39,952 nt of DNA from a virus (taxonomy: Duplodnaviria > Caudoviricetes). Made by a program: the position numbers and the translations under genes. The notes below the pieces were generated by a model, which saw only the letters and a list, made by a program, of their open reading frames with translations, had not been told where the DNA came from and ran no database searches. The stretch is taken from positions 1-39,952 of IMG/VR virus record IMGVR_UViG_3300020156_000056; one strand, 5' to 3'. Positions 1-39,828 of this stretch are shown here, one piece after another (the first letter of the stretch is position 1; each line of letters starts with the position of its first letter).

Positions 1-202
1 ATTCATCAATCCGTGCTTCCCGCTCCACCCGCTTCATCTCGGCTTCAAAGAGAGCTACAGTTTGGTCAACTTCTTCGCTATAATCTGTTCCCTCAAGAAC
101 TTCGCCTGTTTCATCTCTGGTTAATATGTGATCTGGCTCACCGTCCGGACTTTCTTCAAGTCCCCATATTTCAACAAGCTTTTCGCGTAGTTCCTTATTC
201 AT
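1..202 (-). CDS. 5' part of the hypothetical protein also found at 38902-39198 (truncated by window edge)
   Basis: Near-identical to 38997-39198. ATG at 202 with AGGAG RBS upstream. Confidence 0.75.
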   Translation of the reverse strand, partial: MNKELREKLVEIWGLEESPDGEPDHILTRDETGEVLEGTDYSEEVDQTVALFEAEMKRVEREARIDE

Positions 203-241
203 ATAATCTCCTTAACTTGTAGGATTATGTTAATTGGTTAT

Positions 242-344
242 GGTTAAAACACAGGTAAGTGATGGTAAGACCTTAATGCGCAACTCGGGATTTGGTATCC
301 ATGTTTCATCTTCCCTACTTACCATCACAGAGCTATGTTCAACC
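242..344 (-). ncRNA. Hairpin cassette A (putative structured RNA)
   Basis: Inner stem GTGATGGTAAG (259-269)/CTTACCATCAC (318-328) with a 48-nt loop. Outer stem GGTTAAAACACAG/CTATGTTCAACC, whose mismatches become G-U pairs on the minus strand. Confidence 0.6.
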
Positions 345-347
345 GTA

Positions 348-436
348 GTTAAAGACAGGGTGCTGGAAGGTCGTGTGTTTGTCATGCATTGCTGCAAGTG
401 GTCTTTATCGGAACCTTCCAGCGCACTATCCTCAAC
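348..436 (-). ncRNA. Hairpin cassette C (putative structured RNA)
   Basis: Inner stem GTGCTGGAAGGT (360-371)/ACCTTCCAGCGC (413-424) with a 41-nt loop. Outer stem GTTAAAGACAG/CTATCCTCAAC gives 11 bp with 3 G-U pairs on the minus strand. Confidence 0.6.
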
Positions 437-451
437 CGTGAAGGCTATCCA

Positions 452-511
452 AACAAGGCATTGCCGGAGTTGTGACACTCCAGTGCTCGTAAGCACCGTT
501 TATGCCTTATT
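452..511 (-). ncRNA. Three-way-junction structured element D
   Basis: Closing stem AACAAGGCAT/ATGCCTTATT with two internal hairpins. The UNCG-capped stem covaries with the copy at 39731-39790. Confidence 0.55.
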
Positions 512-549
512 GAGTATTCGGCACTCTCCGACAATGTGATCCTTGTTCT

Positions 550-629
550 TGGGAGTGGCAGGACTCGAACCTGCGCTAGGACTACCCTTTCGGGATTCGG
601 TTCCAGCTCCTCATTACGTCAACACTCCC
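550..629 (-). ncRNA. tRNA-like RNA (acceptor stem and T arm, no canonical D or anticodon arm)
   Basis: Minus strand reads GGGAGUG...GCAGG-UUCGAGU-CCUGC-CACUCCC-A: a 7-bp acceptor stem, canonical T arm and internal CCC-GAAA-GGG hairpin. No 5-bp anticodon stem with a 7-nt loop could be found. Confidence 0.65.
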
Positions 630-824
630 GTGGCTGGGCTTCGTTTTACGACTGAAGCCCCAAGCGTCGTCACGGTTACCACTTGGCTGGTTGGCTCCAT
701 TTACTGCAATCGTGTGGGTAAAGACACCATTACACACCAAGGGTCAAATATGGAGGGGTTGGGTTGTTTTCTTTTTTCAAAGTCACCTCCCTTCTGTTTA
801 ACGTATTGCTACTTACCTAAGGGG

Positions 825-1061
825 CTAAAGTTGTACCATCAATTTATCTATGGTTTCGTAGCCTTGTTCTTGCACGATGTTTAAAACTTGTTCTAACGGT
901 AAACTTAGCTCCTTAGCGATTTGAGTTTCGTCGTAGCCGTAGTCAAGCAGTCCCCCTATTTTGAGTTCTAAGGTTTTCCAATAACCAAGAAACTTCCAGA
1001 CTGGCACCTTGGTTGCATCGGGTTCAATATTTGATTTCCAGCTCACACGTTTTCCTTTCAT
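825..1061 (-). CDS. Hypothetical protein, possible small helix-turn-helix
   Basis: 78 aa, co-oriented. The segment YDETQIAKELSLPLEQV resembles an HTH. Confidence 0.55.
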   Translation of the reverse strand: MKGKRVSWKSNIEPDATKVPVWKFLGYWKTLELKIGGLLDYGYDETQIAKELSLPLEQVLNIVQEQGYETIDKLMVQL

Positions 1062-1082
1062 CTTACTGTTATAGGGTGGGGG

Positions 1083-1259
1083 CTACTCAGTTTCAGGTTT
1101 TTGCTTTAATTCATCATCACTGTTATTTTCGGCTTCTAAAAGTTCCAAGTAATATACCGCTAATTTATCCGCTGAACTGCGAGTCAAAAACCCATCCACT
1201 TTAAGCTTGTTACTTTCATTAATTGTGTATTCGATAACAATATTTGCTATTTTGTCCAT
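1083..1259 (-). CDS. Small hypothetical protein (58 aa, MDKIANIVIE...)
   Basis: Read by hand. AGGAG RBS, ATG at 1259, TAG at 1083. Confidence 0.6.
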   Translation of the reverse strand: MDKIANIVIEYTINESNKLKVDGFLTRSSADKLAVYYLELLEAENNSDDELKQKPETE

Positions 1260-1482
1260 ACTTTTCTCCTTTGCGGGCTAGACCGCTTAACTAATTACTT
1301 TCTTACGCTTCTTTGGTTTACCGTTATAGAACTGGTTATGGGCTGGGCTAATCATAAAAAACTCCTTTACGTACTTCATTTGCTAAATATCTGTTGTATT
1401 TACACTCTGACTTATTACAAATGGAGTCTTTCCAGCGGCTACAGTGTAGGGTTTCAAGCCACTGGGCTATTGCTTCGGTCAA

Positions 1483-1638
1483 TTATTTATCCTTGAGTTT
1501 TAGCTCTAGGCCACCGAAAAAAGAGAGGCCGCCAATAACTAAACAAATCATTATTCCTAATGGAGTTTTAGCTTGAGCTGCTATAGCTATAAGATAGATG
1601 CCTTCAATCAATAAAAAGTTAGTTATGAAGTCTTTCAC
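1483..1638 (-). CDS. Small membrane protein (51 aa)
   Basis: GTG start right after the stop of the upstream gene. Two hydrophobic stretches. Confidence 0.5.
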   Translation of the reverse strand: MKDFITNFLLIEGIYLIAIAAQAKTPLGIMICLVIGGLSFFGGLELKLKDK

Positions 1639-1639
1639 A

Positions 1640-1963
1640 CTATTTGCCCCATGACTCCGTTACTACAGGCTCTACAACAGGCGTAACTTCAGGAGTAGGC
1701 GTTGGTAATGGTACGGGCGCTGGGACAGGTTGTGGAGTCTCTGTGACTACTACAGGTGGTGTTACGGGTGTTGGAGTAGGAGTCGGGCTTGGGGCTGGAC
1801 TTGGAACTGGTGGCGTAGGTTGTGGCTGTGATGGTGGTGATGGACGGTTGTGTGATTTGTGGGACTTATGTTTAGTAGTAGCGTAGACTTTAGCCGTTCC
1901 AGTATAGACAGCGGTTACGAGTACTATGGCTGGGATAATGCGGGCTAGGTTTTTAAGTGACAT
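1640..1963 (-). CDS. Secreted or membrane-anchored Pro/Thr-rich protein
   Basis: N-terminal signal-like hydrophobic segment followed by a PT/PV low-complexity stalk. GAAGGA RBS. Confidence 0.75.
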   Translation of the reverse strand: MSLKNLARIIPAIVLVTAVYTGTAKVYATTKHKSHKSHNRPSPPSQPQPTPPVPSPAPSPTPTPTPVTPPVVVTETPQPVPAPVPLPTPTPEVTPVVEPVVTESWGK

Positions 1964-1973
1964 GTTATTTCCT

Positions 1974-2144
1974 TCATTTATTTAATCGTTTAGCTCTTTT
2001 ACACGTGCAGTTGATTCCGGCACAGTCGTATCCTTCTTCTTCGCGCTCACACCGATGCCAACGCTTATAGCCAAAATAGATAATCAGAATTAAAGTCGGG
2101 CAAATACCGAAAGTCAGAATGATAACGGTGCTCAGTAGTTCCAT
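1974..2144 (-). CDS. Small membrane protein (56 aa) with Cys-rich tail
   Basis: Read by hand: MELLSTVIILTFGICPTLILIIYFGYKR... GAGG RBS. Fills the gap between its neighbours. Confidence 0.55.
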   Translation of the reverse strand: MELLSTVIILTFGICPTLILIIYFGYKRWHRCEREEEGYDCAGINCTCKRAKRLNK

Positions 2145-2146
2145 GG

Positions 2147-2413
2147 CTACCTCACTTCTATTTTCTTAACGGTGCGTTTCTTACGTGCTCCTGGGTGGTA
2201 GATGTCTATGACTTTAGGTTTTACTTTGGCAGTACGACCCATTGAAATATCATGTTGACCTCCCTTAGGAACATGTTTGCCATTGCGAGAGCTAGAAGTA
2301 TCACGATCACGCTTGATACGGCGCAACAAGCTAGAGTAAAAATTCTTAAGACTCTTCGCGGATGGAAGCTCCTCGTAATTGAGGCCGTCCTTTTTGTCTT
2401 TTTCATCAGTCAT
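2147..2413 (-). CDS. Basic hypothetical protein
   Basis: 88 aa, GAAGGA RBS, abuts neighbours. Confidence 0.6.
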   Translation of the reverse strand: MTDEKDKKDGLNYEELPSAKSLKNFYSSLLRRIKRDRDTSSSRNGKHVPKGGQHDISMGRTAKVKPKVIDIYHPGARKKRTVKKIEVR

Positions 2414-2433
2414 ATAGTTCCTTCACGGTTTTA

Positions 2434-2691
2434 CTAGTTTGTATTTTCTTTAGCTTCGGCTTCTTTGCGTCGTGCTGAACGGCCGCCTAAAGCTCCAACT
2501 ACGCGCGCCCTTTGGCGGCCTGTTAAGCCGTCGGGGCCAATATTATTTGAAGCGAAGCCTCCGGTAGTCGAGGCAGCGCCGCCTTTTGCACCAATGTTTC
2601 TCAGGTGAGCTTTAAATGCCGCTTCACTACCAAACGTTTCTTTAATCATCTTTTCTCTAGACTTAAAATATCCTTCACGGGTGCCGCTCAT
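2434..2691 (-). CDS. Small protein with KGG/GG-rich motifs
   Basis: Motifs IGAKGG...GGF...GALGGR. GAAGGAG RBS. Confidence 0.7.
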   Translation of the reverse strand: MSGTREGYFKSREKMIKETFGSEAAFKAHLRNIGAKGGAASTTGGFASNNIGPDGLTGRQRARVVGALGGRSARRKEAEAKENTN

Positions 2692-2738
2692 GCTTACTCC
2701 TTCACACGTAAAAACGTGATAGTTTCTTTACTAGTTGT

Positions 2739-3188
2739 TTATTGATACGAATTTCCTTCTGTAGAGCTTTCAGGCTCCTCTGTGTTCGAGCCATACTTAA
2801 TTCGGTACTGTTCAAGTGACATACTTCCTTTCTGTGTATTACAGCTCCAGCAGCAAGGCTGAAGATTCTCATGTTCATATCTAAGTGATGGATTGCCGCT
2901 ACGGGGTTTTACGTGGTCTAAAGTAGTCTCTATGGGTGTTAAGTACTTGCCACATAGATAGCACTCATATGACTCCTGCGCGTGATCTATGAACCATTGG
3001 CGGCGAGTGATGCGCCAGAGCTTGATAGCTTTGCTGCGGCGCTTAGGGACTACTTTTGTATAAGTCTTGTAGTTTAAGCTCCCCTTCCATCCGTACTTTT
3101 TGAGATACGGGTTTTTCCAGCACTGGTATGGGTAGTGATTTGTTCCTTCGCAGTATTTGCATGGTTTTGGTTCTGTACGCATTTGCAA
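2739..3188 (-). CDS. HNH endonuclease with zinc-binding motifs
   Basis: CxxC...TLDHVKPRS...ENLQPCCWSCNTQKG HNH signature. The exact start is uncertain. Confidence 0.88.
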   Translation of the reverse strand: MQMRTEPKPCKYCEGTNHYPYQCWKNPYLKKYGWKGSLNYKTYTKVVPKRRSKAIKLWRITRRQWFIDHAQESYECYLCGKYLTPIETTLDHVKPRSGNPSLRYEHENLQPCCWSCNTQKGSMSLEQYRIKYGSNTEEPESSTEGNSYQ

Positions 3189-3256
3189 TATATTTTCAAT
3201 TTAGATTCGGGCTTAATACGTAGGTGACAAGATAGACAAAGGCGCATTATTGCCAT

Positions 3257-3550
3257 CTAAAAAGTCCATTGCCACAGTATTCGACCTCCGCCGTGGTTCA
3301 TGTATCCCCTTTCAATACCTGCTCGTTTAAACTGGCCTGAACTGAATACGTTTCCAATAAGTGACGGTGGTAGGTAGTAGGGTATCGGATGGGATTGTTT
3401 CACCATGTCCGAAGTGCAGTAGCCATATTCTTTGATGAGCGTTTCAGCTACGGTGCGGGCTTCATCGAGCCATTCTTTTTTAGTGATACGGGTTTCTGTT
3501 TTTTGGGTGTCTTGAAATAAAGACCGTTGACGGCCTTGAATCTTCCACAT
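3257..3550 (-). CDS. Hypothetical protein
   Basis: 97 aa, GAGG RBS, co-oriented. Confidence 0.65.
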   Translation of the reverse strand: MWKIQGRQRSLFQDTQKTETRITKKEWLDEARTVAETLIKEYGYCTSDMVKQSHPIPYYLPPSLIGNVFSSGQFKRAGIERGYMNHGGGRILWQWTF

Positions 3551-3567
3551 TGTTTTCGCCTCTCTAG

Positions 3568-4176
3568 TTAATTTTGATTACCCCATTGCTTGGCCATAGC
3601 GGCTGCAACTTCTTCAAATGTTTGGCTTCGTTTTTTCCATCGGTCTTTGCCGCCTTTGTTAAACCAATTACCTGCGAGCCGTGTGTTTTCCAATGGCACA
3701 ACAATGTTTGTTGGTTTAAGCGGTGGTAGGTTTTTTAACCATAGCCGTGTCCTTTTTTGTAACGGCACCCCATGTTCGTAAGGCTGCATGTATTGCGTGT
3801 GAGGGGGCAAATTAAATATCTTACTTGATATAGGGTTTTCAATAGCAATCATGGGTATGTCCGCTGTCCACAACTTCATAAAGAACTTTTTAGCATCGAG
3901 TCCCTTTTCATATCGTTCTTTATTTAGTGTTCTGCCACGGTATAGGTGTTTTGCTCCGGCATTACTAAGATAGGTACATGGCGGATGGGCGATCATCATA
4001 TCCCATCCATCATCCAAAACTTCCAACACATCACCTTGTATATGGTTGCCTGGTCTTTCGGTGGGCAATATGTCACAGCTCCATGCATCGTGGCCAAGTG
4101 CTGCAAAAGCGTCTCGAACAATGCCTGAGTATTCACAGGCTATTAAAACTCTCACCCTATGTCCCCTCGTGTTCAA
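3568..4176 (-). CDS. Phage DNA cytosine-methyltransferase-like protein
   Basis: N-terminal VLIACEYSG (motif I-like), AHPPCT (PC catalytic motif), IENP (motif VI) and KRTRLW (motif VIII-like). Confidence 0.75.
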   Translation of the reverse strand: MNTRGHRVRVLIACEYSGIVRDAFAALGHDAWSCDILPTERPGNHIQGDVLEVLDDGWDMMIAHPPCTYLSNAGAKHLYRGRTLNKERYEKGLDAKKFFMKLWTADIPMIAIENPISSKIFNLPPHTQYMQPYEHGVPLQKRTRLWLKNLPPLKPTNIVVPLENTRLAGNWFNKGGKDRWKKRSQTFEEVAAAMAKQWGNQN

Positions 4177-4224
4177 CTATCCTTAGCCTCTAAGTAAGGC
4201 CAAAGATAGATGCTGATATTAAAA

Positions 4225-4428
4225 TTACTTTGTTGGAGACCGGCGCGAATAGCCGAACTTCCTTATTTCATACTCGTATCGCCATTGGTTATAGCAAGCT
4301 TTACAGCAGCGTTCTGTCCAGATGTAAGTTTTATCTTTGGATACATAGCGTCTGCGTGCTTTGAGTACTAAGTTATCTCCGGTCATGGCGTGATTGTTTT
4401 TGCAGGTCTCAGCATCATAACTTCCCAT
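4225..4428 (-). CDS. Small Cys/His zinc-binding-like protein
   Basis: CKNNH...CCKAC pattern. AGGAGG RBS. Confidence 0.65.
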   Translation of the reverse strand: MGSYDAETCKNNHAMTGDNLVLKARRRYVSKDKTYIWTERCCKACYNQWRYEYEIRKFGYSRRSPTK

Positions 4429-4445
4429 AGCACCTCCTTACGTAA

Positions 4446-4551
4446 TAACAGCGCTTGAAACGGTAGTAAGTTGGTACAGAATGCCCATATACCGCAATGG
4501 CGTCGCTAAGACTTCTTGAACATTCTCTTACTACCGATTGAGGCGCTGTTA
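4446..4551 (-). ncRNA. Hairpin cassette (second array, unit 1)
   Basis: Outer stem TAACAGCGC/GCGCTGTTA. Inner stem CGGTAGTAAG (4461-4470)/CTTACTACCG (4527-4536). 56-nt loop. Confidence 0.6.
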
Positions 4552-4570
4552 CTGGTTTATGTTTAACTGG

Positions 4571-4747
4571 TTATTCTTTTGGCATGTACTGGATTAAGTC
4601 ATCTAAAGCGACACGAACTCTTGTAGGCATTGCGCTTAATTCTTTTGGGTTTAAGTCACAGTAGCTTTTGAGCATCCGTAGCATATAGAGCGGCACCGGC
4701 ACCAAAGTAGTGTCAGTCGTAGGATAAACAGCCTTTAACTTTGGCAT
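4571..4747 (-). CDS. Small hypothetical protein (58 aa, MPKLKAVYP...)
   Basis: Read by hand. Strong AAAGGAGGAG RBS. Lies between hairpin cassettes. Confidence 0.7.
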   Translation of the reverse strand: MPKLKAVYPTTDTTLVPVPLYMLRMLKSYCDLNPKELSAMPTRVRVALDDLIQYMPKE

Positions 4748-4771
4748 ATACTCCTCCTTTTATTTAACTAT

Positions 4772-5137
4772 GGTTAATAAAGCGCTAGAAAACCAAGCGT
4801 AGGTGTCATTAGTGCCTAGCCTAGCAATGCGTTCTTACGGTTAGCATCGGGCAGTGACTTTAATGCTCTGAGGCCACATGCTGCCTACGCTTGGATATGT
4901 AGCGCTCTATTGTCTTGGTTAATAAGAGACAGCAGCGAAGGTACGCTACTTGATATAAGCTTTCGACGGCTATCTCGAGTTCTCATCTACCGGCCGCACG
5001 TTCACATACCCTCGATGTTGCCTCTTATTATCTTGGTTAATACAGGCCAGGTGAATGACGGTAGGCACACTCTGTTACAGCAAGCCCCTAACGAGTATGG
5101 ATGCTGGCATCCTACCGCCAATAATCTAGCCTGTATT
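4772..5137 (-). ncRNA. Three tandem hairpin cassettes (4772-4911, 4917-5030, 5035-5137)
   Basis: Each starts GGTTAATA on the + strand. Inner stems are CCAAGCGTAGG/CCTACGCTTGG, CGAAGGTA/TACCCTCG and TGACGGTAGG/CCTACCGCCA, with loops of 80, 63 and 45 nt. Most mismatches are G-U on the minus strand. Confidence 0.65.
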
Positions 5138-5289
5138 GTTTGCTTAAAAAGGAGCGCCAGTAGTTTCGTCAACTGGATAATCAGGCTCCTCGGGTTGAAC
5201 GTCGCCGATCATATCCGGTTCCAAAGTTTCGCCTTGTGGTGTGTGATGGCCGTCATACTCTAGGTCTGAACGCCAGTCGTTAGATTGTG

Positions 5290-5886
5290 TCATTTACTTG
5301 TCTCCGTTACCTTCTGGTTTAATTTAGCGATGATCTCTCGGGCTTGTTCTTTCGTCATTTTCAATGGGTCTACGCCGTATTCGAGTAAGATAGTACTCTT
5401 TATAGAGTCAGGGTCGTTATTCGTACCTGTGCGCTTTAGCAGGCTTGTTATGGTGCCTTTTTGCATGGCGCTGGCAGGTTCGTTACCTTGTTCATCTGCG
5501 AGCCGTATTAAGCCTTCTTTGACGGTTTCCTTTGGGGTATTACGCTGATGTATAGCGTTTGCTACCTCATCGGCGCTGGCGTACTCGGTACCACCAATTC
5601 CGAAGGCTGCTAATGCACGTCCAATGGCGCTTGTTTCACAATTTTCCAGGGCTGATGTTTTGTTAATCATGCTGGCTTCGCGCTTTTCTTCAGCGAAGCC
5701 AGTGGCCACGGTCTTGTCGGTATCGAGCAAGATAATTGAGGCTTTCATGACAACCGTTATTTCGTCTCTGTCGATAATCTCGGTAACAATACCGTATTTA
5801 TCCTTGTGTTCTTCACGGAACCTAGCCACGCGGCTAGCAACCGTTTCATAGTCCTTGTTATGGATTCGGACAGTTTCTTTAGTCAT
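5290..5886 (-). CDS. Putative single-strand annealing recombinase (Rad52/Sak-like)
   Basis: KDYETVASRV, ATGFAEE and ENCETSAIGRAL motifs typical of phage SSAP-like proteins. Start moved to ATG 5886 (AAGGAG RBS). Confidence 0.65.
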   Translation of the reverse strand: MTKETVRIHNKDYETVASRVARFREEHKDKYGIVTEIIDRDEITVVMKASIILLDTDKTVATGFAEEKREASMINKTSALENCETSAIGRALAAFGIGGTEYASADEVANAIHQRNTPKETVKEGLIRLADEQGNEPASAMQKGTITSLLKRTGTNNDPDSIKSTILLEYGVDPLKMTKEQAREIIAKLNQKVTETSK

Positions 5887-5902
5887 AGCTAGGCTCCTTT
5901 GA

Positions 5903-6139
5903 TTAGTCCTTATCGTTAAGTGCGCGGAACAGGTCAATCACACCGAAGCCGAATAGCAAGGCTGCTAAAACAGCGCCAGCGATTCGTAGATCATCGTTAG
6001 TGACGTGCTTGACCGTACAGAAACCGATGGCTCCTGCACCGATAATCGCGAGTACAAAGCGGCCGATGTAATATGCATACCAAATCTGTACTGTTGCCTT
6101 ATCTTTCTTAACTTGTGCGTTGTGTTTAAATTGGTTCAT
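5903..6139 (-). CDS. Two-TM membrane protein
   Basis: 78 aa, two hydrophobic segments, GGGAG RBS. Confidence 0.7.
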   Translation of the reverse strand: MNQFKHNAQVKKDKATVQIWYAYYIGRFVLAIIGAGAIGFCTVKHVTNDDLRIAGAVLAALLFGFGVIDLFRALNDKD

Positions 6140-6167
6140 CTTAAAAATCTCCCACCAGATTTACTGG

Positions 6168-6371
6168 TTATTCTTTAGCTTTAATGTCTATTGCTTCACC
6201 GCATTTCTTACAGGTCTTCGTAAGGGTTGTGTAATCCATGCCGTCTTCGTTATCATCTGAGTACTCGAAATAGTCGTAAGACCATTCGTGTTCACAGGAT
6301 TCCTTTTCTTCTTTCTTGCTGCCGTTGAACATAATGTCCAGTCCGGCTAGTACAGGGTTGAACATATACAT
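6168..6371 (-). CDS. Small acidic zinc-ribbon-like protein
   Basis: CEHEW...CKKCG. GAAAGG RBS. Confidence 0.65.
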   Translation of the reverse strand: MYMFNPVLAGLDIMFNGSKKEEKESCEHEWSYDYFEYSDDNEDGMDYTTLTKTCKKCGEAIDIKAKE

Positions 6372-6391
6372 TCCTTTCTAATTTTTTAGGT

Positions 6392-6461
6392 AACTCGCTC
6401 AACTAGAGCGGTATATAAGTGACGATAAGTGTGTCAACTTACCGCCCTAGTAGAGCGAATT
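6392..6461 (-). ncRNA. Isolated hairpin cassette
   Basis: TCGCTC-A-ACTAGAGCGGTA / TACCGCCCTAGT-A-GAGCGA with a 26-nt loop. The A-C mismatch is G-U on the minus strand. Confidence 0.5.
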
Positions 6462-6522
6462 GTGTCTCAGTCATCTTGAGTTGATATAGGCCAGGTTGCC
6501 AGCAATAAATGCTGGACTTTGA

Positions 6523-6711
6523 CTAGTTAAGCGAGACTAGTTCTTTGACTTCGCTTCTAATGGCAATAATCGCATCGGCGTGTTCACGTAATGCTATTGC
6601 CATATTAATTAGTGCTTCTTCTCCGAAGTTATCTAAGAAAAATAGTCTAATATCGTAAGCTGAATGATTCTCGCTCAAGAATTCTTGTATCTCTTGTCTT
6701 GAAGTTGCCAT
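6523..6711 (-). CDS. Small hypothetical protein enclosed by an inverted repeat
   Basis: ATG at 6711 with AAAGGAG RBS, 62 aa. Flanked by a 26-bp imperfect IR at 6483-6508 / 6723-6748. Confidence 0.7.
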   Translation of the reverse strand: MATSRQEIQEFLSENHSAYDIRLFFLDNFGEEALINMAIALREHADAIIAIRSEVKELVSLN

Positions 6712-6781
6712 GATTGTCTCCTTTATTAGTGACAATCTGGCCTATATCGTTTTGAGTAGTTTTAAAGCCTCTACTCACGGG

Positions 6782-7366
6782 CTAATACCAGTTGTTTTGG
6801 TAGTGAAATTGAAGTGCGACTGATGGTTTTCCGTAAACTCCGATGAGATATCCGATGCCCCATTTCATTTGTGTAACAGGGTTCGTTTGCCAATCTGAGC
6901 CAACGGTTGCCATCTTGCTTGCAGGCCATGATTGCGGGATACCACCAGCTCCACTATCAGGATTGATAGCCAAGTGGTTAAATCCAGACTCACATGACCA
7001 AAGCTCTAATAACGCTGTCCATTCACTGCCTGTCCATCCATGTTGTTTGGCTAGCTCTTGCCCTAGATTGGCATTGGCGACATTAATGGTCTTCCAATTG
7101 CCTTGTTTAGGTGAGCCACAAAAAACTCGGGATGGGTTTTCTGGTTCCGGCTTAACCGGTTCTATGGCCACTACAGGATTTACTGTCTGTAATGGCACCT
7201 GCACCGATTCCGCCGCCGTTGATTTTGCTTGCAGTATAAATACTTCCGCGTCAACGCTTTGATGTTGAACCGATGATTTGTCAAGGTTAGCCGGAGTTGC
7301 TTTCACGATGCCTATTGATGCTGCTATGAGTCCAATAAGAGTCGCTGTTGCGAAGATATATTTGAT
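6782..7366 (-). CDS. Secreted lytic-transglycosylase-like protein (aggregation-promoting-factor C-terminal type)
   Basis: LWSCESGFN...AGGIPQ...NPVTQMKWG..Y...YG...NNWY lysozyme-like signature. The frame is open upstream to an ATC at 7366, 7 nt after AGGAG, which adds a signal peptide. Confidence 0.8.
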   Translation of the reverse strand: MKYIFATATLIGLIAASIGIVKATPANLDKSSVQHQSVDAEVFILQAKSTAAESVQVPLQTVNPVVAIEPVKPEPENPSRVFCGSPKQGNWKTINVANANLGQELAKQHGWTGSEWTALLELWSCESGFNHLAINPDSGAGGIPQSWPASKMATVGSDWQTNPVTQMKWGIGYLIGVYGKPSVALQFHYQNNWY

Positions 7367-7511
7367 ATACCTACTCCTTTGTTAATGAGTTGCCTGAGCT
7401 ATTGAGGTACGCATCATTTGTTGCGCTACCGTCGGTTGTCAGGGTTCTCGACCTCAGTTTCATAAGGCTCTCACCTTATTCAGATTTCTGTATCTGACTG
7501 AAGCATCTTTC

Positions 7512-7535
7512 CTTGCGAAGAAAAGCCTGCCTCAG
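7512..7535. repeat. 24-bp perfect inverted repeat, left arm
   Basis: CTTGCGAAGAAAAGCCTGCCTCAG is the exact reverse complement of 9385-9408. Confidence 0.95.
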
Positions 7536-7541
7536 TTGAAT

Positions 7542-7566
7542 AAAAAAAACTGGCCGTTGTGACCAG
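7542..7566 (-). terminator. Rho-independent terminator downstream of the recombinase
   Basis: Minus strand CTGGTC-ACAAC-GGCCAG followed by T8. Confidence 0.7.
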
Positions 7567-7667
7567 GTTTCATGTATTACTAAACGTTAGGAGTTTGATA
7601 AATCTAGTAATTTGTGATTAAACAGTTGACTAATGCAACTCTTTACCCGGTCGATATTTTGTTTTCT

Positions 7668-8570
7668 TTAAGGTTCGTTCCAAAACTCTGAAGGTATCTT
7701 AGCACTAGTGGTATCGTTTGTCAATGGGTTTATTGTTTTAGGCGCATAGATGGCGTGTTGCTGTACCTTATGGGACTTCGACATGTGCAGGTAACGCATG
7801 GCGACGTTCACATTTACATGCCCCATCATCTTCATAATATCGTATATGTTTGCACCACTTTCCGCTAGATAGGTACCAAAGCCATGCCGTAAGGAATGGG
7901 GGTTAACATGTTTAATGCCAGCCTTTCTAGAGGCAAGTTTTAGACAAAGGCTCACAGCGCCGCTATGTATTCTCTGTCCGGTAGTAGAGCGGAATATATA
8001 CCCTGTAGTGATCTGCTCCATCATTAAGTAGAGTTGCAAGTAATCTGCCACTCCCTGGTCTATAACTACATCATCATGCTTACCGCCTTTACGGATAATA
8101 TGGATGGTATTTTCGGTGATGTCTTCAACGGTAATATTAATCAGTTCGTTAATGCGCATACCTGACGTAAACAGCAAAAGGACTATAAGCCGATCCCTTG
8201 AACGGGGTATGACTTCTAATAGTTTATTGACTTCTTCAGGGGTTACGTAGCGTATGACTACCTGTTCACGTTTAGTCTGTACGACATGCTCGCTTAATAC
8301 CTGAGTCCAACCGTTTCTGTTCTGGTAAAAGATAAAGCTGCGGATAGAGGATGAATAACGGGCTAAGGTGTTACGCTTTAACCCTTCCGCCTCAATCTGG
8401 ACAAAGAAAGCGTCTACTTTATCGAGGGTAAGCTCATCTAAAGTCTTAATGTGTGCTGTTTGGAAAAACTGTTCTAAATTAGAGCGATAGGTGGTGATGG
8501 TAGTAGGAGAAAAGCCTTTCACCTTACGGGCAAAAGTCAAATAGTCTTCAACTGCCTTACGTATCTCCAT
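7668..8570 (-). CDS. Tyrosine recombinase/integrase (XerC/D-like)
   Basis: N-terminal SAM-like domain. Catalytic residues R (SGMRINEL), K (RKGGK), HxxR (HSLRH), H (MGH) and Y (MRYLH). Start placed at ATG 8570 (GAGG RBS); the ORF is open to 8624. Confidence 0.93.
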   Translation of the reverse strand: MEIRKAVEDYLTFARKVKGFSPTTITTYRSNLEQFFQTAHIKTLDELTLDKVDAFFVQIEAEGLKRNTLARYSSSIRSFIFYQNRNGWTQVLSEHVVQTKREQVVIRYVTPEEVNKLLEVIPRSRDRLIVLLLFTSGMRINELINITVEDITENTIHIIRKGGKHDDVVIDQGVADYLQLYLMMEQITTGYIFRSTTGQRIHSGAVSLCLKLASRKAGIKHVNPHSLRHGFGTYLAESGANIYDIMKMMGHVNVNVAMRYLHMSKSHKVQQHAIYAPKTINPLTNDTTSAKIPSEFWNEP

Positions 8571-9057
8571 CTGTCCACCTCTTGACCTATCTACAGTAAT
8601 ACCATTTTGTTGTATATCTTGCATATAGCTTATGTGTGATATTCATCAAATCTTCATAAAGATAAATATCAAAGTCCTTCAGTAGTTGGGAATGGTTATG
8701 TTATTAAAAACACAAAGCAATAGCTCCCTGCCGGTATTAAGGAGGCAGGTTGATGAGCTATGACTTGGATACCACAAAGCAACGTCTCTAAGGCGCTTAG
8801 TCTTTTCCTGCCGTATTTGCATTCACAGGTACGCTTTTTTTAAGTCTAACCAAAGTTAAACAGGTGAACATTAAAACACCTCAAGGAGCACTATCGTAGA
8901 GTCTCTAGTCTAAGCTTTTCATGCCCACTACCGTAGTATCACTTCTATCTCATGCATTGAGCAGGTCAGGGGTTATTTTAGATACCCCAAAACTATCAAT
9001 ACACGAAGCAATAAACCCTCCGTAGATGTACCCATGCCTGAATACCAGGCTATGTGG

Positions 9058-9237
9058 TTACTTTGCTAATTTCTCTATTGCAAGGAGTCCTTTTGAAAGA
9101 GCCTCCTTTAACTGTTGTAACTGGAAATCTTTGTCAGTACCGATAGATTCGGGTTCGATTGTCTCATACGATTTATTGGCAATCTTAAGAGCGTTCGTGA
9201 GTGAACGCCGAACTTTTTCTAGGTCTTCTTTTTGCAT
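9058..9237 (-). CDS. Small helical protein enclosed by an inverted repeat
   Basis: GGAGG RBS, ATG 9237, 59 aa. Flanked by an IR at 9022-9046 / 9262-9287. Confidence 0.65.
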   Translation of the reverse strand: MQKEDLEKVRRSLTNALKIANKSYETIEPESIGTDKDFQLQQLKEALSKGLLAIEKLAK

Positions 9238-9348
9238 TGTGCCTCCATTATAAGCCATCTCGGTAATGCAGGCACAGGTACATCTACTGTCTACAGGGCT
9301 GTTATCGTACAGCCGGACGTAGTATCCAAGTTTTTAAGACTCGGGGTA

Positions 9349-9408
9349 TAAAAAAGACCCCAGAGTTATAGCTATCGCTATGCTCTGAGGCAGGCTTTTC
9401 TTCGCAAG
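9349..9408 (-). ncRNA. Putative ~60-nt small RNA or attenuated leader
   Basis: Starts just downstream of a sigma70-type promoter and folds into a stem followed by a T-run. Its first 24 nt (9408-9385) are the IR arm complementary to 7512-7535. Confidence 0.6.
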
Positions 9409-9414
9409 ACCTTC

Positions 9415-9443
9415 ATTGTATCACAACTAGCCGCATAAGGCAA
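9415..9443 (-). promoter_or_regulatory. Sigma70-type promoter
   Basis: TTGCCT, 17 bp spacer, TACAAT, with TG at the extended -10 position. Confidence 0.75.
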
Positions 9444-9566
9444 TATACAAAGGCAAAGGCCACCCGAAGTTTGTTGGAACGAACCTTTGGGGTGGCCTTC
9501 TGGATAGTCCGCCGAAGGGCTTCCTATCGTTAAGCTATTCTAGCATTTTAAGGCTAGTTTGTCGAG

Positions 9567-9719
9567 CTACAACGGGGCTGTATCTACGATCTCATCTTTG
9601 ATGGCTAAGAAGGCTGTAAGTCCTTCTAAGGCGATCTGTGAGGCGATACGCTGCACTTCCGCGTCTTCTAACGCTTCCTGTAACATGATCTCAAATTCTT
9701 GGGCGTTTGGCTTATCCAT
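9567..9719 (-). CDS. Small acidic protein (50 aa, MDKPNAQEFE...)
   Basis: Read by hand. Open frame, co-oriented, weak RBS. Confidence 0.5.
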   Translation of the reverse strand: MDKPNAQEFEIMLQEALEDAEVQRIASQIALEGLTAFLAIKDEIVDTAPL

Positions 9720-9752
9720 AATTAACTCTTAACCGCAGCCGAAGCGGGTTAA

Positions 9753-10124
9753 TTAAATACTTGTTCCATTTGTATCAGGGGTTGTTGATTTGTAAGATGT
9801 TCCGTTAGGGAGATCATGTTTCTTACCATCAGCGATGACCGTGAAGATTGTCGCACCTTCTTTTACGCCAGTCCATTTATCGTAGCCTTTCATATCGTAC
9901 ACTTGGTCAAGCCAGTCGCGACAAGTAAGCTTGATTGTATCTTTAAGTGCCTTCCGCTGTTCCTTGTCTCCTGTTAAATCACACATTTGCATGAGACGTC
10001 CCACGAGGGTATCTAATTCACTATGTGAGATTGGGACACGTAGGCCGATTTCATCACTATATTGGATTAAAACATTGTGGTCTGTGTTTTGGGGATCTTG
10101 GTTTTGGGCTAAACTTTCTTTCAT
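9753..10124 (-). CDS. Hypothetical protein enclosed by a short inverted repeat
   Basis: 123 aa. Flanked by CCGCAGCCGA (9733-9742) / TCGGCTGCGG (10151-10160). Confidence 0.75.
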   Translation of the reverse strand: MKESLAQNQDPQNTDHNVLIQYSDEIGLRVPISHSELDTLVGRLMQMCDLTGDKEQRKALKDTIKLTCRDWLDQVYDMKGYDKWTGVKEGATIFTVIADGKKHDLPNGTSYKSTTPDTNGTSI

Positions 10125-22701: not shown

Positions 22702-22764
22702 ATGAGCTAGTTCCTTTAGGCGCCTAATGGCTTAGCTATTTGTATTAACACTTCCCTTCTAAAC

Positions 22765-22808
22765 AAAAAAGCAGCCTATGCCTTCGTTAAAGAAGGGTTA
22801 AGACTGCT
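22765..22808 (-). terminator. Rho-independent terminator
   Basis: AGCAGCCT..CCTTC / GAAGG..AGACTGCT stem with a T6 tail on the minus strand. Confidence 0.65.
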
Positions 22809-22888
22809 ATACGGGTGGTAGCTGGGTGCTTAGTTCAAAGTGTTAATAAGTTAATCGCACTGACTAACTTACCTAGATTATACCATAC

Positions 22889-22930
22889 AAAAAGCCCCTA
22901 GCAATAGTCAGTGCGATGTATGCTAGGGGC
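22889..22930 (-). terminator. Rho-independent terminator
   Basis: GCCCCTAGCA/TGCTAGGGGC 10-bp stem with a T5 tail. Confidence 0.75.
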
Positions 22931-22957
22931 GGTACCTACTTTATTATACCAGAATAC

Positions 22958-22988
22958 AAAAAGAAAATCCCCCGCTTTACACGGGGGA
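22958..22988 (-). terminator. Rho-independent terminator
   Basis: TCCCCCG/CGGGGGA stem with a T-rich tail. Confidence 0.75.
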
Positions 22989-23198
22989 CTCTTGAGGACT
23001 GGTGGTCCTCGTATGTTTACTGCCATTCGTGGCTTTCAACACACCTACAAGTTTCACCAAAGATAATACTATATTGGATCAGGCATTGCAAGTACTGACC
23101 ACGTAAACCTCTCTTAACTTATTGCTAGAGGATGTGGAGTGTCTCTATGGTGTTTTTATTTTTGTTGTTAAGAGAGGCATAGATAGTTAGTAGTTCTA

Positions 23199-26100
23199 CT
23201 ATGACGGTAAGAGTGTGATGTCGTCAAACCAAGCATCCATTATCAAAGTACCGGAGCCAGTATGGCCGTAAATTCTAGGCTCGACATGCCCCCAATATGT
23301 ATCTGATGCAGTCGTGAAGTTTATGGTGTACTGCGTCCAATCGGTGGTGGTTTTAATATAGGTGCCTGAAGTTGATCCTGAGGCAGAACCATTTGCCTTT
23401 TGGTATAGGATAAAGAGATTTGCACCACCTCCTGAGTCGCCACTAACGTAGTTCGTCTTTAGCCAATAGGTAAGCGTGTAAGCGGTGTTAGGCTGTAGTA
23501 AAAATCCTGCTGCTGCGTTGTAAGCGACAGCGCCGTCACTTTTTAGTTCGATCCAAGAACTGGGGGCTGTAGTGCTTAATTTCATTGAGTAAGTTGATGA
23601 ATGCGATACTGAGTTGTCAAAGCGAGCTTCGCCGCTTCCACTTTTATTGAAGTACCATTTGAACAAGTCATTCGTGGTAGAGCCTGTGGCCGTTCCATCA
23701 ATCCATCGGGGTGAAGTGTTCGTAGTTGCGGTAAACGGTGGCGCGTACTCGAAGTCACCATTAAACACTAAGTTCGCGTCTATCTTCTTACGGGGTTTGG
23801 AAGGGACGTCTGAGCTAAAAGTGGCGCCAGTGATGGTACCATGGTTAGCGTTGCCGGATGTATCATTTGCGGTTGTCCCTGCGCCTTCATCAAGTTTCCA
23901 CAGACCAACTAAGTTTGTAGAGGTATACGTACCAGAAGTATATAGTTCTTTAATCTCACTCTGAGAGAGAAGACGTCCGAACAGCATTACTTCATCTAAC
24001 GAACCTATAAATATTTCAGTTATGCCTGCATAACCGCCTAACGTGAGTACTGCGGAAGTGTCTGTATTTCCTACGGTGCTTATGGTACCTGTTTTTACGG
24101 CAAGGCCATTTAAATAGAGAGTTACGACACCAGTTCTATCAAAAGTGGCAGCGACATGTGACCATTCATTGTTATTTACCTTAGTGGTTGAAGTTACAGT
24201 CGTTACAGATCCGTCACCTATAAGGGCAGAAAACAAGTTATTGCCTTCAACTCGCAAAGCGTATAATGTAGCGCCGCCACCTTTTCTTATGAAATACCTA
24301 ATCGTATTGCCAGTAGGCTTAATCCAAGCGGTGATAGTAAAGTTTTGGGCGGCACCAAACCTAAGACTAGATGCGTCTGGTACTTGTATAGGATTACTTG
24401 AAGAATTAAAGGTAAGACTTGTTCCAAAGTCTCTGACTTTAAACCTTGGTTTACTAGGTACGTCATTGGAGAATGTAGCGGTTGTTATTGTGCCAGTGTT
24501 TCCGTTTCCAGATACGTCGGCAGTTGTGGTACCAGTTCCTTCATCGAATGTATATCGGAACTTTAGATTATTAGGGACTACGCCGTTGTAATACAAGGCC
24601 GCAATTTCATTAGTAGCATTTGTTGGTATCCACATCATGGGTTCGTCTATGTAACCATCAAAATATTCTGCTCCCGTATTAAATCCTATAGCCAACTGAC
24701 CTACTGTAGTGTTGGCAGGTGCGGTGCCTGTTACGTAATCTACTTGTACACCGTTTATATAAAAAGTAGCGTCGTTGGCACCATCGAAATAAACAGCGTA
24801 ATGGTACCAGACGCCAGGCACTATTTTTACATCAGATAAGTAATCTTTTACACCTGTAGTGGTGAAGGCTATAGCGTCTTTATTTCTAGAAATTCTGAAT
24901 GTAGGGTTACCAACCATTACATGACGACCTGTACTGATGGAAGTTGCTTTGAACCAAGTTGCAACAACAAAATTATTTTCAAGTGCAGATGATGGGGCAT
25001 TCATACATTGAACTTTATCGGCTACACCATCAAATTTTAGTGATGTCCCAAAATCTCTTACTAGTTGTCTTTGTGTATTAACTGTAGGAGTAAGGGTTAT
25101 ATCGTCGAACCAGGCGTCCATGATTAAAGTGCCCGCACCGTTTGAACCTGTAATTAGGGGTCGGACATTCAAGTAGGCAGTAGTAGAAGCTGTCGTGAAC
25201 ACCATTGTATATTTGGTCCAATCAGTAGTCGTTTTTACTTTGGTTGAGGCTTGATCTACCACCGTACCGCCAGTTGTGCTATTTCTTTCAGTTATAAGGA
25301 GATATGCCCCGTCGTTGGAGTCGCCAGAAACATAGTTTGTTTTTAGCCAGAATGTACATGTGTAGCTGGTATTAGGCGTTGCGGGTATACCGTACTTGAA
25401 TACTTCACTGGCGGGCGATGTAGTTCGGATATTTGAAGTTTGGATACTACTGCCCGTCGCACTAGTAGATAATTTAAGCGAAGACGTGCCGCTATGTGAC
25501 ACAGTATTGTCTATATAGCATGATGAGGTTCCTGCTGTTAGAAATTCTGCCCAGCCGAATAAGTCGTTTGTAGTTGAGCCTGAAGCAGTACCGTCTATCC
25601 ACCTGTTTGCATTAGTTGTGGGCGCCGTGAATGGCGGCGCGTACTCGAAGTCACCATTGTTTATAAGATTATTTCCTACTTGTTTACGTAGTTTAGACGG
25701 GGTGTCATTAGAGAATACAGCGCCAGTGATTGTGCCGTGATTAGCTCCTACGCCTGAGTCAGCGACAGTTGAGCCTGCACCTTCATTGAAGTTCCATTCT
25801 GAATTAGGGGATACGGATGGGTTGCTAGTTGTGTAATCAAGAAGAACATCAGCAGCAGTAAGTCGGCTGTTGAAGATTTTGACTTTGTCCATTAAGCCAT
25901 TGAAGTTTAAAGAATTGGAAATACCGATATTTAAATCACCTGAAGGGGAGTTTGTATCGCCAGTATAGTCTACAGTGTGAGTTGAACCTAATTTATAGCC
26001 ATCTTCGTACTCATCACATTTAGCAGAGCCACTTTCTACATAAATGACATATGCTCGGTGGTGCCAGCGTCCATCACCGTTAGGGTGGTTGAAATTGCGG

Positions 26101-39237: not shown

Positions 39238-39349
39238 GGTTAAAACACACGGAGCTGGCAGTGACCTTGCAAGTTATCGAAGTCGCTTAATCATACTGAA
39301 TGTGCACATTATGATTGCTGCTTCGCCCTGCCAGCTCTATATGTTCTAC
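39238..39349 (-). ncRNA. Hairpin cassette B (present only in the right-end copy)
   Basis: GGTTAAAACACA leader. Inner stem GAGCTGGCAG (39252-39261)/CTGCCAGCTC (39328-39337) with a 66-nt loop. TATGTTC trailer. Confidence 0.6.
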
Positions 39350-39352
39350 TGT

Positions 39353-39460
39353 GGTTAAAACACAGGTAAGTGATGGTAAGCCACCAGGCCTTTCACCTGA
39401 TTGACACACGAAGGTTCAGCTCGGTACTTTGACCACACTTACCATCACAGAGCTATGTTC
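39353..39460 (-). ncRNA. Hairpin cassette A' (same stems as cassette A, different loop)
   Basis: GTGATGGTAAG (39370-39380)/CTTACCATCAC (39438-39448) identical to cassette A, with an unrelated 57-nt loop. Confidence 0.65.
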
Positions 39461-39617
39461 TAGCGATTTCATCGCCACATACACAGCGAAGTTTAATGGC
39501 TACCAAGTTATGCCACTTAATTTGTCCTTTTGCGCCATCACCAGCATAGTGTGTGTCTCTATTTGTGAACTTCCATTCAACAACTATCGTGTGTTCGTGA
39601 ACGTGTTTTTTGTGCAT
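39453..39617 (-). CDS. Small protein (54 aa, MHKKHVHEH...RCVCGDEIART) present only in the right-end copy
   Basis: Read by hand. GAAAGGA RBS. The stop codon lies inside the outer stem of cassette A'. Confidence 0.65.
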   Translation of the reverse strand: MHKKHVHEHTIVVEWKFTNRDTHYAGDGAKGQIKWHNLVAIKLRCVCGDEIART

Positions 39618-39828
39618 ACCATTCCTTTCGTTTATCCGTTACACTTCAAAATCTGTTTAACAGAAGTGAATGTTACAGTTGGGCTATTTGTTAATTACAG
39701 TTGTCTATCCTCAACCGTGAAGGCTATCCAAACAAGGCATTGCCGGAGTTGTGGTCACGCAACCCTCGAAAGAGCTGACAATGCCTTATTGAGTATTCGG
39801 CACTCTCCGACAATGTGATCCTTGTTCT

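Follow-up and report, generated by a model that had tools for sequence, protein, structure and literature searches.

The window analysed here, the whole 39,952-nt record of an uncultured soil phage, carries hairpin cassettes whose fixed arms pair on the coding (minus) strand and whose inserts were exchanged between strain alleles (Table 1). An arm pair found in related phages, called S1 in the following, recurs in further viral records around mostly unrelated inserts, shows covariation within its stem and is in most cases preceded by a boxA-like word. As far as sequences can tell, it is quite likely that the cassettes are portable carriers built in the style of an rRNA precursor. We also lean, with more reserve, toward the complete explanation, in which such carriers are released by RNase III, recombine within their arms and present their inserts as shape decoys.

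Table 1. Cassette units and neighbouring features of the window, ordered by position
Feature	Position	Strand	Details
Unit A, left allele	241..345	-	Outer stem ~12 bp, 4x4 internal loop, 11-bp inner stem, 48-nt insert (270-317); z -3.7
Unit C, left allele only	347..437	-	41-nt insert (372-412); z -5.5
Unit D, left allele	441..511	-	10-bp closing stem, two inner hairpins; variable segment 475-501
tRNA-like element upstream of the array	548..631	-	7-bp acceptor-like stem and canonical T arm; z -2.35
Second array	4446..5137	-	Units 4446-4551, 4776-4911, 4920-5030, 5039-5137; inserts 56, 80, ~60, 45 nt; z -3.4 to -5.2
Rad52/Sak-like single-strand annealing protein	5290..5886	-	Directly upstream of the second array; candidate exchange enzyme
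Stem with the arm type of unit 5039-5137	6483..6748	-	Encloses a whole 70-aa ORF (6523-6735) and its ribosome site
Tyrosine recombinase (integrase)	7668-8624		Phage-encoded; from the ORF scan
22-bp stem	9022..9287	-	Encloses a whole 66-aa ORF (9058-9258)
Unit B, right allele only	39238..39348	-	66-nt insert (39262-39327); z -5.8; on the X1 side contig and in X4
Unit A, right allele	39352..39462	-	Arms of the left allele kept; unrelated 57-nt insert (39381-39437)
Right-allele insertion replacing unit C	39453..39704	-	ORF 39453-39617, 54 aa, no Pfam family
Unit D, right allele	39720..39790	-	Variable segment 39754-39780; carried by X4

Two strain alleles of one cassette locus

Read on the minus strand, the units follow a common plan: two stems, the outer one of 10-13 bp and the inner one of 10-11 bp, are separated by a loop of mismatches with about 1-5 nt on either side, and the inner stem closes an insert of 41-80 nt. 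The folding z score on this strand ranges from -3.4 to -5.8 for the eight long-stem units and is -3.1 for unit D, whereas the plus strand gave only -1.3 to -3.1 for the four units that were folded both ways. The isolated non-Watson-Crick pairs of nine units, again on the minus strand, comprise 15 G-U, 5 A-C and 13 others. The excess of G-U over A-C and the lower minus-strand z bear out an earlier note on this DNA, made from the letters alone, which had proposed that folding is favoured on the coding strand. A strict cassette detector reported seven cassettes on the minus and one on the plus strand of the window; 24 of 25 dinucleotide shuffles contained none and the remaining one a single cassette, and as background, 4 were counted in other phage records (673 kb) and none in stretches of host chromosomes (280 kb). 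For cutting, RNase III requires about 11 bp on either side of the site, where loops alter the cutting pattern (PMC3867540). The geometry of the units (10-11 bp, internal loop, 10-13 bp) fits this enzyme, and together with the exchange of alleles described below it agrees with the description of RNA-level cassettes with fixed stems and exchangeable inserts in the earlier note.

The locus had also been described as present twice. Both stretches exist as described, but they are not a genomic duplication: the two copies are one locus, and the overlapping ends of the assembly carry two strain alleles. In run X1, possibly the source of the record, the 38.5-kb flank continues into the left allele at a depth of about 14, and the right allele forms a 515-nt side contig with a depth of 4.4. 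Run X2 contains the left allele only, and left unit A is therefore present on contigs of both runs. In run X4, unit B and the right alleles of A and D occur with different neighbouring DNA, and the insertion of about 244 nt, which takes the place of unit C on the right, is mostly skipped (joint 39460 to 39658). A chimera from an unrelated genome is ruled out by these public contigs, which carry each allele (X1, X2, X4); runs X1-X4 are soil metagenomes of one year and may belong to one campaign.

The flanks of the two copies differ at exactly three positions (128, 204 and 558), in accordance with the three SNPs counted before, and the arms of unit A are identical (241-269 and 39352-39380; 317-340 and 39437-39460). 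The two loops of 48 and 57 nt align no better than shuffled sequences, as 111 of 500 shuffles reach their score, which corroborates the proposed fixed scaffold with unrelated loops. As the inserts are unrelated while the flanks differ at only three sites, we conclude that the insert of unit A was replaced and not gradually changed. The additional unit B and the missing unit C of the right copy were likewise found as described. Unit D behaves differently from unit A: its alleles carry a segment of the same length (27 nt) with differences at 16 positions, and each of them folds into a junction of two hairpins, so that its variation is divergence with the shape kept rather than free exchange.

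The tRNA-like element upstream of the array has a T arm identical over 20 nt to host-class tRNA-Ile, tRNA-Gln and tRNA-Pro; its D and anticodon arms were not recognisable, and it was called neither by ARAGORN nor by Rfam. It is possible that it serves as a processing tag or as a tRNA decoy. The T arm was rejected as an attachment site, the matches falling in several tRNA types. No promoter or terminator site was located in units 241-511 in a scan of positions 1-9800, where such sites were at chance level overall, and a check of positions 1-5200 for RNA holders listed none.

Contigs of runs X1 and X3 also contain the arms of the first unit of the second array (4446-4551), there with a different insert and different flanks (loose ends at 4467, 4530 and 4563). 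We infer that these pieces are one molecule; if so, the arms show a change from an A-T to a C-G pair. The arms of the window are identical between alleles and hence give no covariation signal save this one inferred pair change. Outside the window its own arms were not found in other viral records, and a search for the inner arms of unit A separated by 40-65 nt likewise gave 0 viral records. The arm type of units 5039-5137 and 6483-6748 was tried as a wider family and judged to match by chance (16 matches, 0/16 with the partner arm).

A candidate for the enzyme that exchanges the inserts is encoded directly upstream of the second array. The model of this protein has a pLDDT of 71 and its best PDB fold matches are Mgm101 (E 7.8e-4), RAD52 and 80alpha Sak; because of this E value and a TM of about 0.35 the assignment to a Rad52/Sak-like fold is of moderate strength. 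Proteins of this type reportedly catalyse relaxed recombination. A distant homologue precedes a YqaJ nuclease in locus L323, and the homologue in G415 (C1 7059-7391) contains one in-frame TGA within the match, probably due to a frameshift or a broken gene. The phage also encodes a tyrosine recombinase, and the hairpins might instead be single-stranded DNA sites for this enzyme, similar to attC, all the more since strand-biased wobble pairs are possible in folded DNA too. We regard this as very improbable: the exchanged part lies inside the hairpin and not between hairpins, a comparison of the arm ends by eye revealed no common core across units, S1 loci have no recombinase family in common within the fetched flanks and boxA is read as RNA. 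Integron attC arrays, for comparison, combine shared core sites and cassettes placed between the hairpins with an IntI integrase.

S1 stems and the pre-rRNA of the host class

Relatives of the phage by terminase and capsid mostly lack arrays, and clear cassettes were seen only in G002 and G415, in which the common arm pair S1 surrounds unrelated inserts of 29 and 55 nt. The exact 18-mer of the S1 5' arm matches 25 viral records, 23 of them new, with a G+C content of 32-59%, and the partner arm is present in 25/25, whereas the less specific 16-mer used as control, that of the window arm type of units 5039-5137 and 6483-6748, gave the above 16 matches with the partner arm in 0/16. Across these records, and apparently across two host phyla, the arm pair is constant nearly letter for letter. 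One stem column outside the fixed 18-mer is G-C in 9, A-T in 10 and G-T in 6 records, and the next is T-A in 15, A-T in 8, T-G in one and unpaired in one (n=25, records not fully independent). The pairing of the S1 stem is thus kept by compensatory change, and the stem covariation suggested as a check in the earlier note is seen in this family, the identical window arms being uninformative in this respect.

The S1 inserts comprise 24 unrelated sequences among 25 and range from 29 to 272 nt. Two of them are whole small ORFs, as in the window at 6483-6748 and 9022-9287. Only the inserts of L306 and L312 are related; they are 91% alike within differing flanks and show two compensatory pairs and one change from G-U to G-C. 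Several records carry other arm families in tandem with S1, and many S1 stems sit just before a ribosome site. A comparison of the loop-proximal 10-mers with S1 revealed 9/10 identical positions for unit 4446, 8/10 for units A and B (p ~0.001 each) and 7/10 for units C and 5039; 5/10 window units have no resemblance to S1. The loose motif next to the loop that had been noticed before is real and shared with the S1 stem family of 25 viral records.

These data allow another reading, in which the stems are only signals for mRNA processing and stability and recombination joints for early genes, in the manner of T7-type sites and PeSL-like linkers, with the non-coding inserts as near-neutral filler. 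The bracketing of whole ORFs, the position of many S1 stems directly before a ribosome site and the fact that inserts fold like shuffles are all in line with it, but tandem arrays of 3-4 units contain no ORFs, one insert is still 91% alike between two records whose flanks are different and shows compensatory pairs, and the alleles of unit D keep length and topology. Furthermore, a loop of 30-270 nt is unnecessary for processing alone, and we consider the filler reading unlikely.

Some S1 loci show peculiarities of their own. In L314 (3946-4125) the S1 inner stem is the acceptor stem of a tRNA-shaped insert with a weak match to a tRNA-Sec model (E 1.5). The first 22 nt of the L321 insert resemble a tRNA D arm and also match stretches of three further phage loci. 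The ORF insert of L324 (7751-8023, minus strand) is flanked by a short inner stem that resembles, by eye, the arms of window 6483-6748, which suggests nested cassettes.

To relate the stems to host pre-rRNA, 35 Saccharimonadia 16S loci were inspected, of which 26 were kept (four had no trailer, three no 12-bp helix and one no anchor, and one was a duplicate). In all 26 leaders the base of the leader-trailer helix carries a boxA-like word, which lies 14-16 nt ahead of the conserved core; we take this word to be boxA on account of its position in the 26 host leaders and of the boxA consensus. Upstream of 15/25 S1 stems a matrix derived from these host words scores 6 bits or more (null 1.9%), and upstream of 8/25 it scores 10 bits or more (null 0.26%); the words of S1 are mostly located 12-13 nt ahead of the stem. 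On the host core matrix the S1 inner stem ranks in the top 0.05% of window 12-mers; only two of the 26 host arms agree with S1 at 8/10 positions, and boxA and the helix core are about 19 nt apart in S1 versus 14-16 nt in the hosts. The window units have no boxA-like word, with a best score of 6.2 bits among 14 units versus 9-16 bits for the host words, and because of this the rRNA mimicry seen in S1 is carried over to the window via the partial stem match. The host helix-core matrix does not single out the window units either (unit A is 13th of 18 on the minus strand). The TTAACCA at the window arm ends was tried as boxA and does not score with the matrix.

RNase III and NusB genes are present and adjacent on one strand in 5/5 Saccharimonadia genomes (G208, G243, G113, G357, G294). 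Rho was not found in these five, so that boxA cannot act against Rho in these hosts; RtcB was not found in the five either, which leaves circularisation by RtcB unsupported. A fit to the archaeal bulge-helix-bulge was rejected by eye. In several Saccharimonadia loci (L342-L345, L458-L462) the 23S gene lies kilobases away from the 16S gene, and the boxA-like word is itself part of the 16S helix, at whose base it pairs with the trailer.

Under the carrier reading, an early transcript would be made across the cassettes, and the arms would mimic the leader-trailer helix of host pre-rRNA. Nus factors may help the arms to pair where boxA is present, comparable to the model for pre-rRNA arms in PMC10250234. 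Host RNase III would then presumably cut at the central loop, about 11 bp from the insert, and the product would be the insert closed by a stem of 10-14 bp, that is, a small RNA or a one-gene mRNA with paired and protected ends. The identical arms of 23-28 nt may in addition serve as recombination joints for the phage annealing protein, and inserts are probably swapped there. The RNA inserts themselves would most likely act by their shape as decoys against defence or regulatory proteins of the host, which is the weakest step of the model. No protein family is common to more than 9/26 loci within the fetched flanks, and the reader of the cassette is for this reason probably a host factor.

S1 is not a chromosomal repeat, since its 18-mer, allowing two mismatches, is no more frequent (16/401 Patescibacteria genomes) than its reversed control, and in six matches inspected by eye the partner arm was missing. 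Cultured phages gave no match to the S1 cassette, and plasmids gave matches at chance level. Proteins of three S1 proviruses were named from Rhodococcus, Arthrobacter and Rathayibacter (10 proteins queried, 8 found). Small early-gene families of high-G+C loci, some of them with Actinobacteria names (L300, L301, L309, L310, L319), are shared with low-G+C phages like that of the window, and the gene pool of these small early genes seems to span host phyla. This is in line with phages that are targeted by both Saccharibacteria and Actinobacteria spacers, as mentioned in PMC10746230. It is tempting, yet rather doubtful at present, to assume that phages of Saccharibacteria and Actinobacteria share an RNA socket derived from the pre-rRNA frame of their hosts and trade decoy small RNAs. 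If true, there would be an aptamer-like pool of decoys (24 different among 25 sampled) as RNA counterpart of the microprotein arsenal of early genes, and the boundaries of decoy RNAs could be read directly from the genome.

Insert function and known systems

The inserts of the same carrier could also be antisense guides that pair with RNAs of the host or of rival phages, as the earlier note had proposed, beside decoys, with its programmable loops. Many inserts are weakly folded with even base composition, as would be expected for guides, and 16 nt of the L313 insert (7740-7867) are perfectly complementary to the 16S rRNA of one Saccharimonadia genome; this match is borderline, as 6/200 shuffles reach at least 16 nt as well. 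However, the loops of both alleles matched only 14/201 and 19/201 host-class genomes at E <= 0.1, which is about the number expected by chance, and no target site recurs. The true host is probably not among these 201 genomes, short seeds are not detectable in such a search, and the second array was searched within a 9.4-kb query only. Antisense matches of inserts to 29 16S and 5 23S rRNAs were at the null (mean 10.13 nt versus 10.05 +/- 0.14), and a comparison of 49 inserts with 4.2 Mb of fetched phage and host loci returned only the L306/L312 pair and tRNA-like pieces. Lengths of 29-272 nt, ORFs as inserts and compensatory changes in the only homologous pair fit guides poorly, and no effector gene is common to S1 loci within the fetched flanks. 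The proposal of programmable guides is accordingly not borne out, and we rate it as improbable.

Sense matches of inserts to rRNA were slightly high (10.49 versus 10.15 +/- 0.14), partly due to common tetraloop hairpins. Overall, shuffles are folded as strongly as the inserts, which also contain no excess of tetraloop hairpins (9 versus 5.8 +/- 2.6); both observations weaken the shape-decoy step. In the window and in S1 neighbourhoods Rfam gave nothing above the gathering score, and 12 wider loci gave one ordinary tRNA; by Rfam and the rRNA comparisons the payload is not rRNA. Nevertheless, action by shape is more likely than base pairing, as the L306/L312 inserts and unit D keep their structure, tRNA-like pieces occur, insert length is free and the cassettes sit among variable early genes; this is the least certain step of the explanation.

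Precedents for this arrangement exist piecewise in pre-rRNA helices, T7-type sites and PeSL joints. As in the leader-trailer helix of pre-rRNA with boxA and RNase III (PMC10250234), a helix of at least about 22 bp with a central imperfection is formed from arms that flank the payload. A boxA-like word lies at the base of the S1 helix, and RNase III and NusB occur in the host class. Unlike in pre-rRNA, the cassette payload is unrelated RNA of 29-272 nt or a small gene, and units are tandem and exchangeable; moreover, the window units have no boxA word, and the S1 18-mer is not above the control in 401 Patescibacteria genomes. The RNase III sites of T7-type phages are local hairpins between the genes of early transcripts. 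They share with the cassettes a helix of about 22-28 bp with a central internal loop, the early operon and the host enzyme as reader, but in the cassettes a payload that varies lies within the helix, and many different phages have one arm pair in common. The PeSLs of T4-type phages consist of a promoter and a terminator hairpin between genes and are likewise short repeated elements of variable early regions that act as recombination joints, whereas the cassette joints are the two halves of one RNA helix with the swapped part inside (PMC2839356 for PeSLs).

A fixed frame with a variable insert is also found in CRISPR arrays and TIGR systems, and RNA anti-CRISPRs are reportedly phage small RNAs of the arms race between phage and host. 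The statement that the locus is not a CRISPR array proved correct: identical direct repeats, a fixed insert length, cas genes among the 59 ORFs, an Rfam match and a target of the inserts were all looked for and not found. TIGR-Tas systems combine 36-nt units with a Nop-domain gene; the phage units measure 70-136 nt and no Nop-domain match was obtained in 59 ORFs, which confirms their separation from TIGR. Full-text searches of the open-licence literature gave no report of an arm pair common to phages with interchangeable RNA and gene inserts.

From the arms one can read the exact ends of dozens of putative phage small RNAs that are in no catalogue and that covariation screens would miss because they have no Rfam family and almost no homologues. 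The inserts delimited in this way represent a directly testable library of phage non-coding RNAs against hosts. If the carrier reading is true, phages use the route of ribosome maturation of their host as a general expression vehicle, and a frame this compact, giving stable RNAs whatever their sequence, could serve as an expression scaffold.

Gene content and likely host of the virus

The genes of the virus lie on the minus strand and encode a terminase, a capsid protein, a holin, an amidase, a tyrosine recombinase and many small early ORFs without family (59 ORFs scanned). The capsid protein is 58-59% identical to that of Saccharimonadia prophages (3/4 loci in one search) and 71% identical to a protein on a contig in an Acidobacteria bin, and the transglycosylase gene has DNA matches within Saccharimonadia. 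A Saccharimonadia bacterium is therefore the likely host, as judged from these similarities. One search with the integrase returned 0 related loci and a separate one a single homologue at 36%.

Contigs of run X1 skip or replace the segments 3556-4163, 4220-4434 and 8702-9004, that is, genes were gained or lost at strain level; the first of these segments covers a methyltransferase gene. A perfect 24-bp inverted repeat (7512-7535/9385-9408) brackets the integrase gene and the cassette at 9022-9287. A promoter-like site that ends at 9415 precedes one of its arms by a few bases, and a terminator-like site precedes the other. The repeat may form a long-range RNA stem or delimit an invertible segment; no strand-switch joint is listed among the joints of the X1-X4 contigs. 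Finally, a third hairpin cluster is located at 22733-23260 on the minus strand between structural genes and a small ORF; 56 nt upstream, but inside a coding end, is the boxA-like word with the highest score of the genome (15.2 bits, at 23251).
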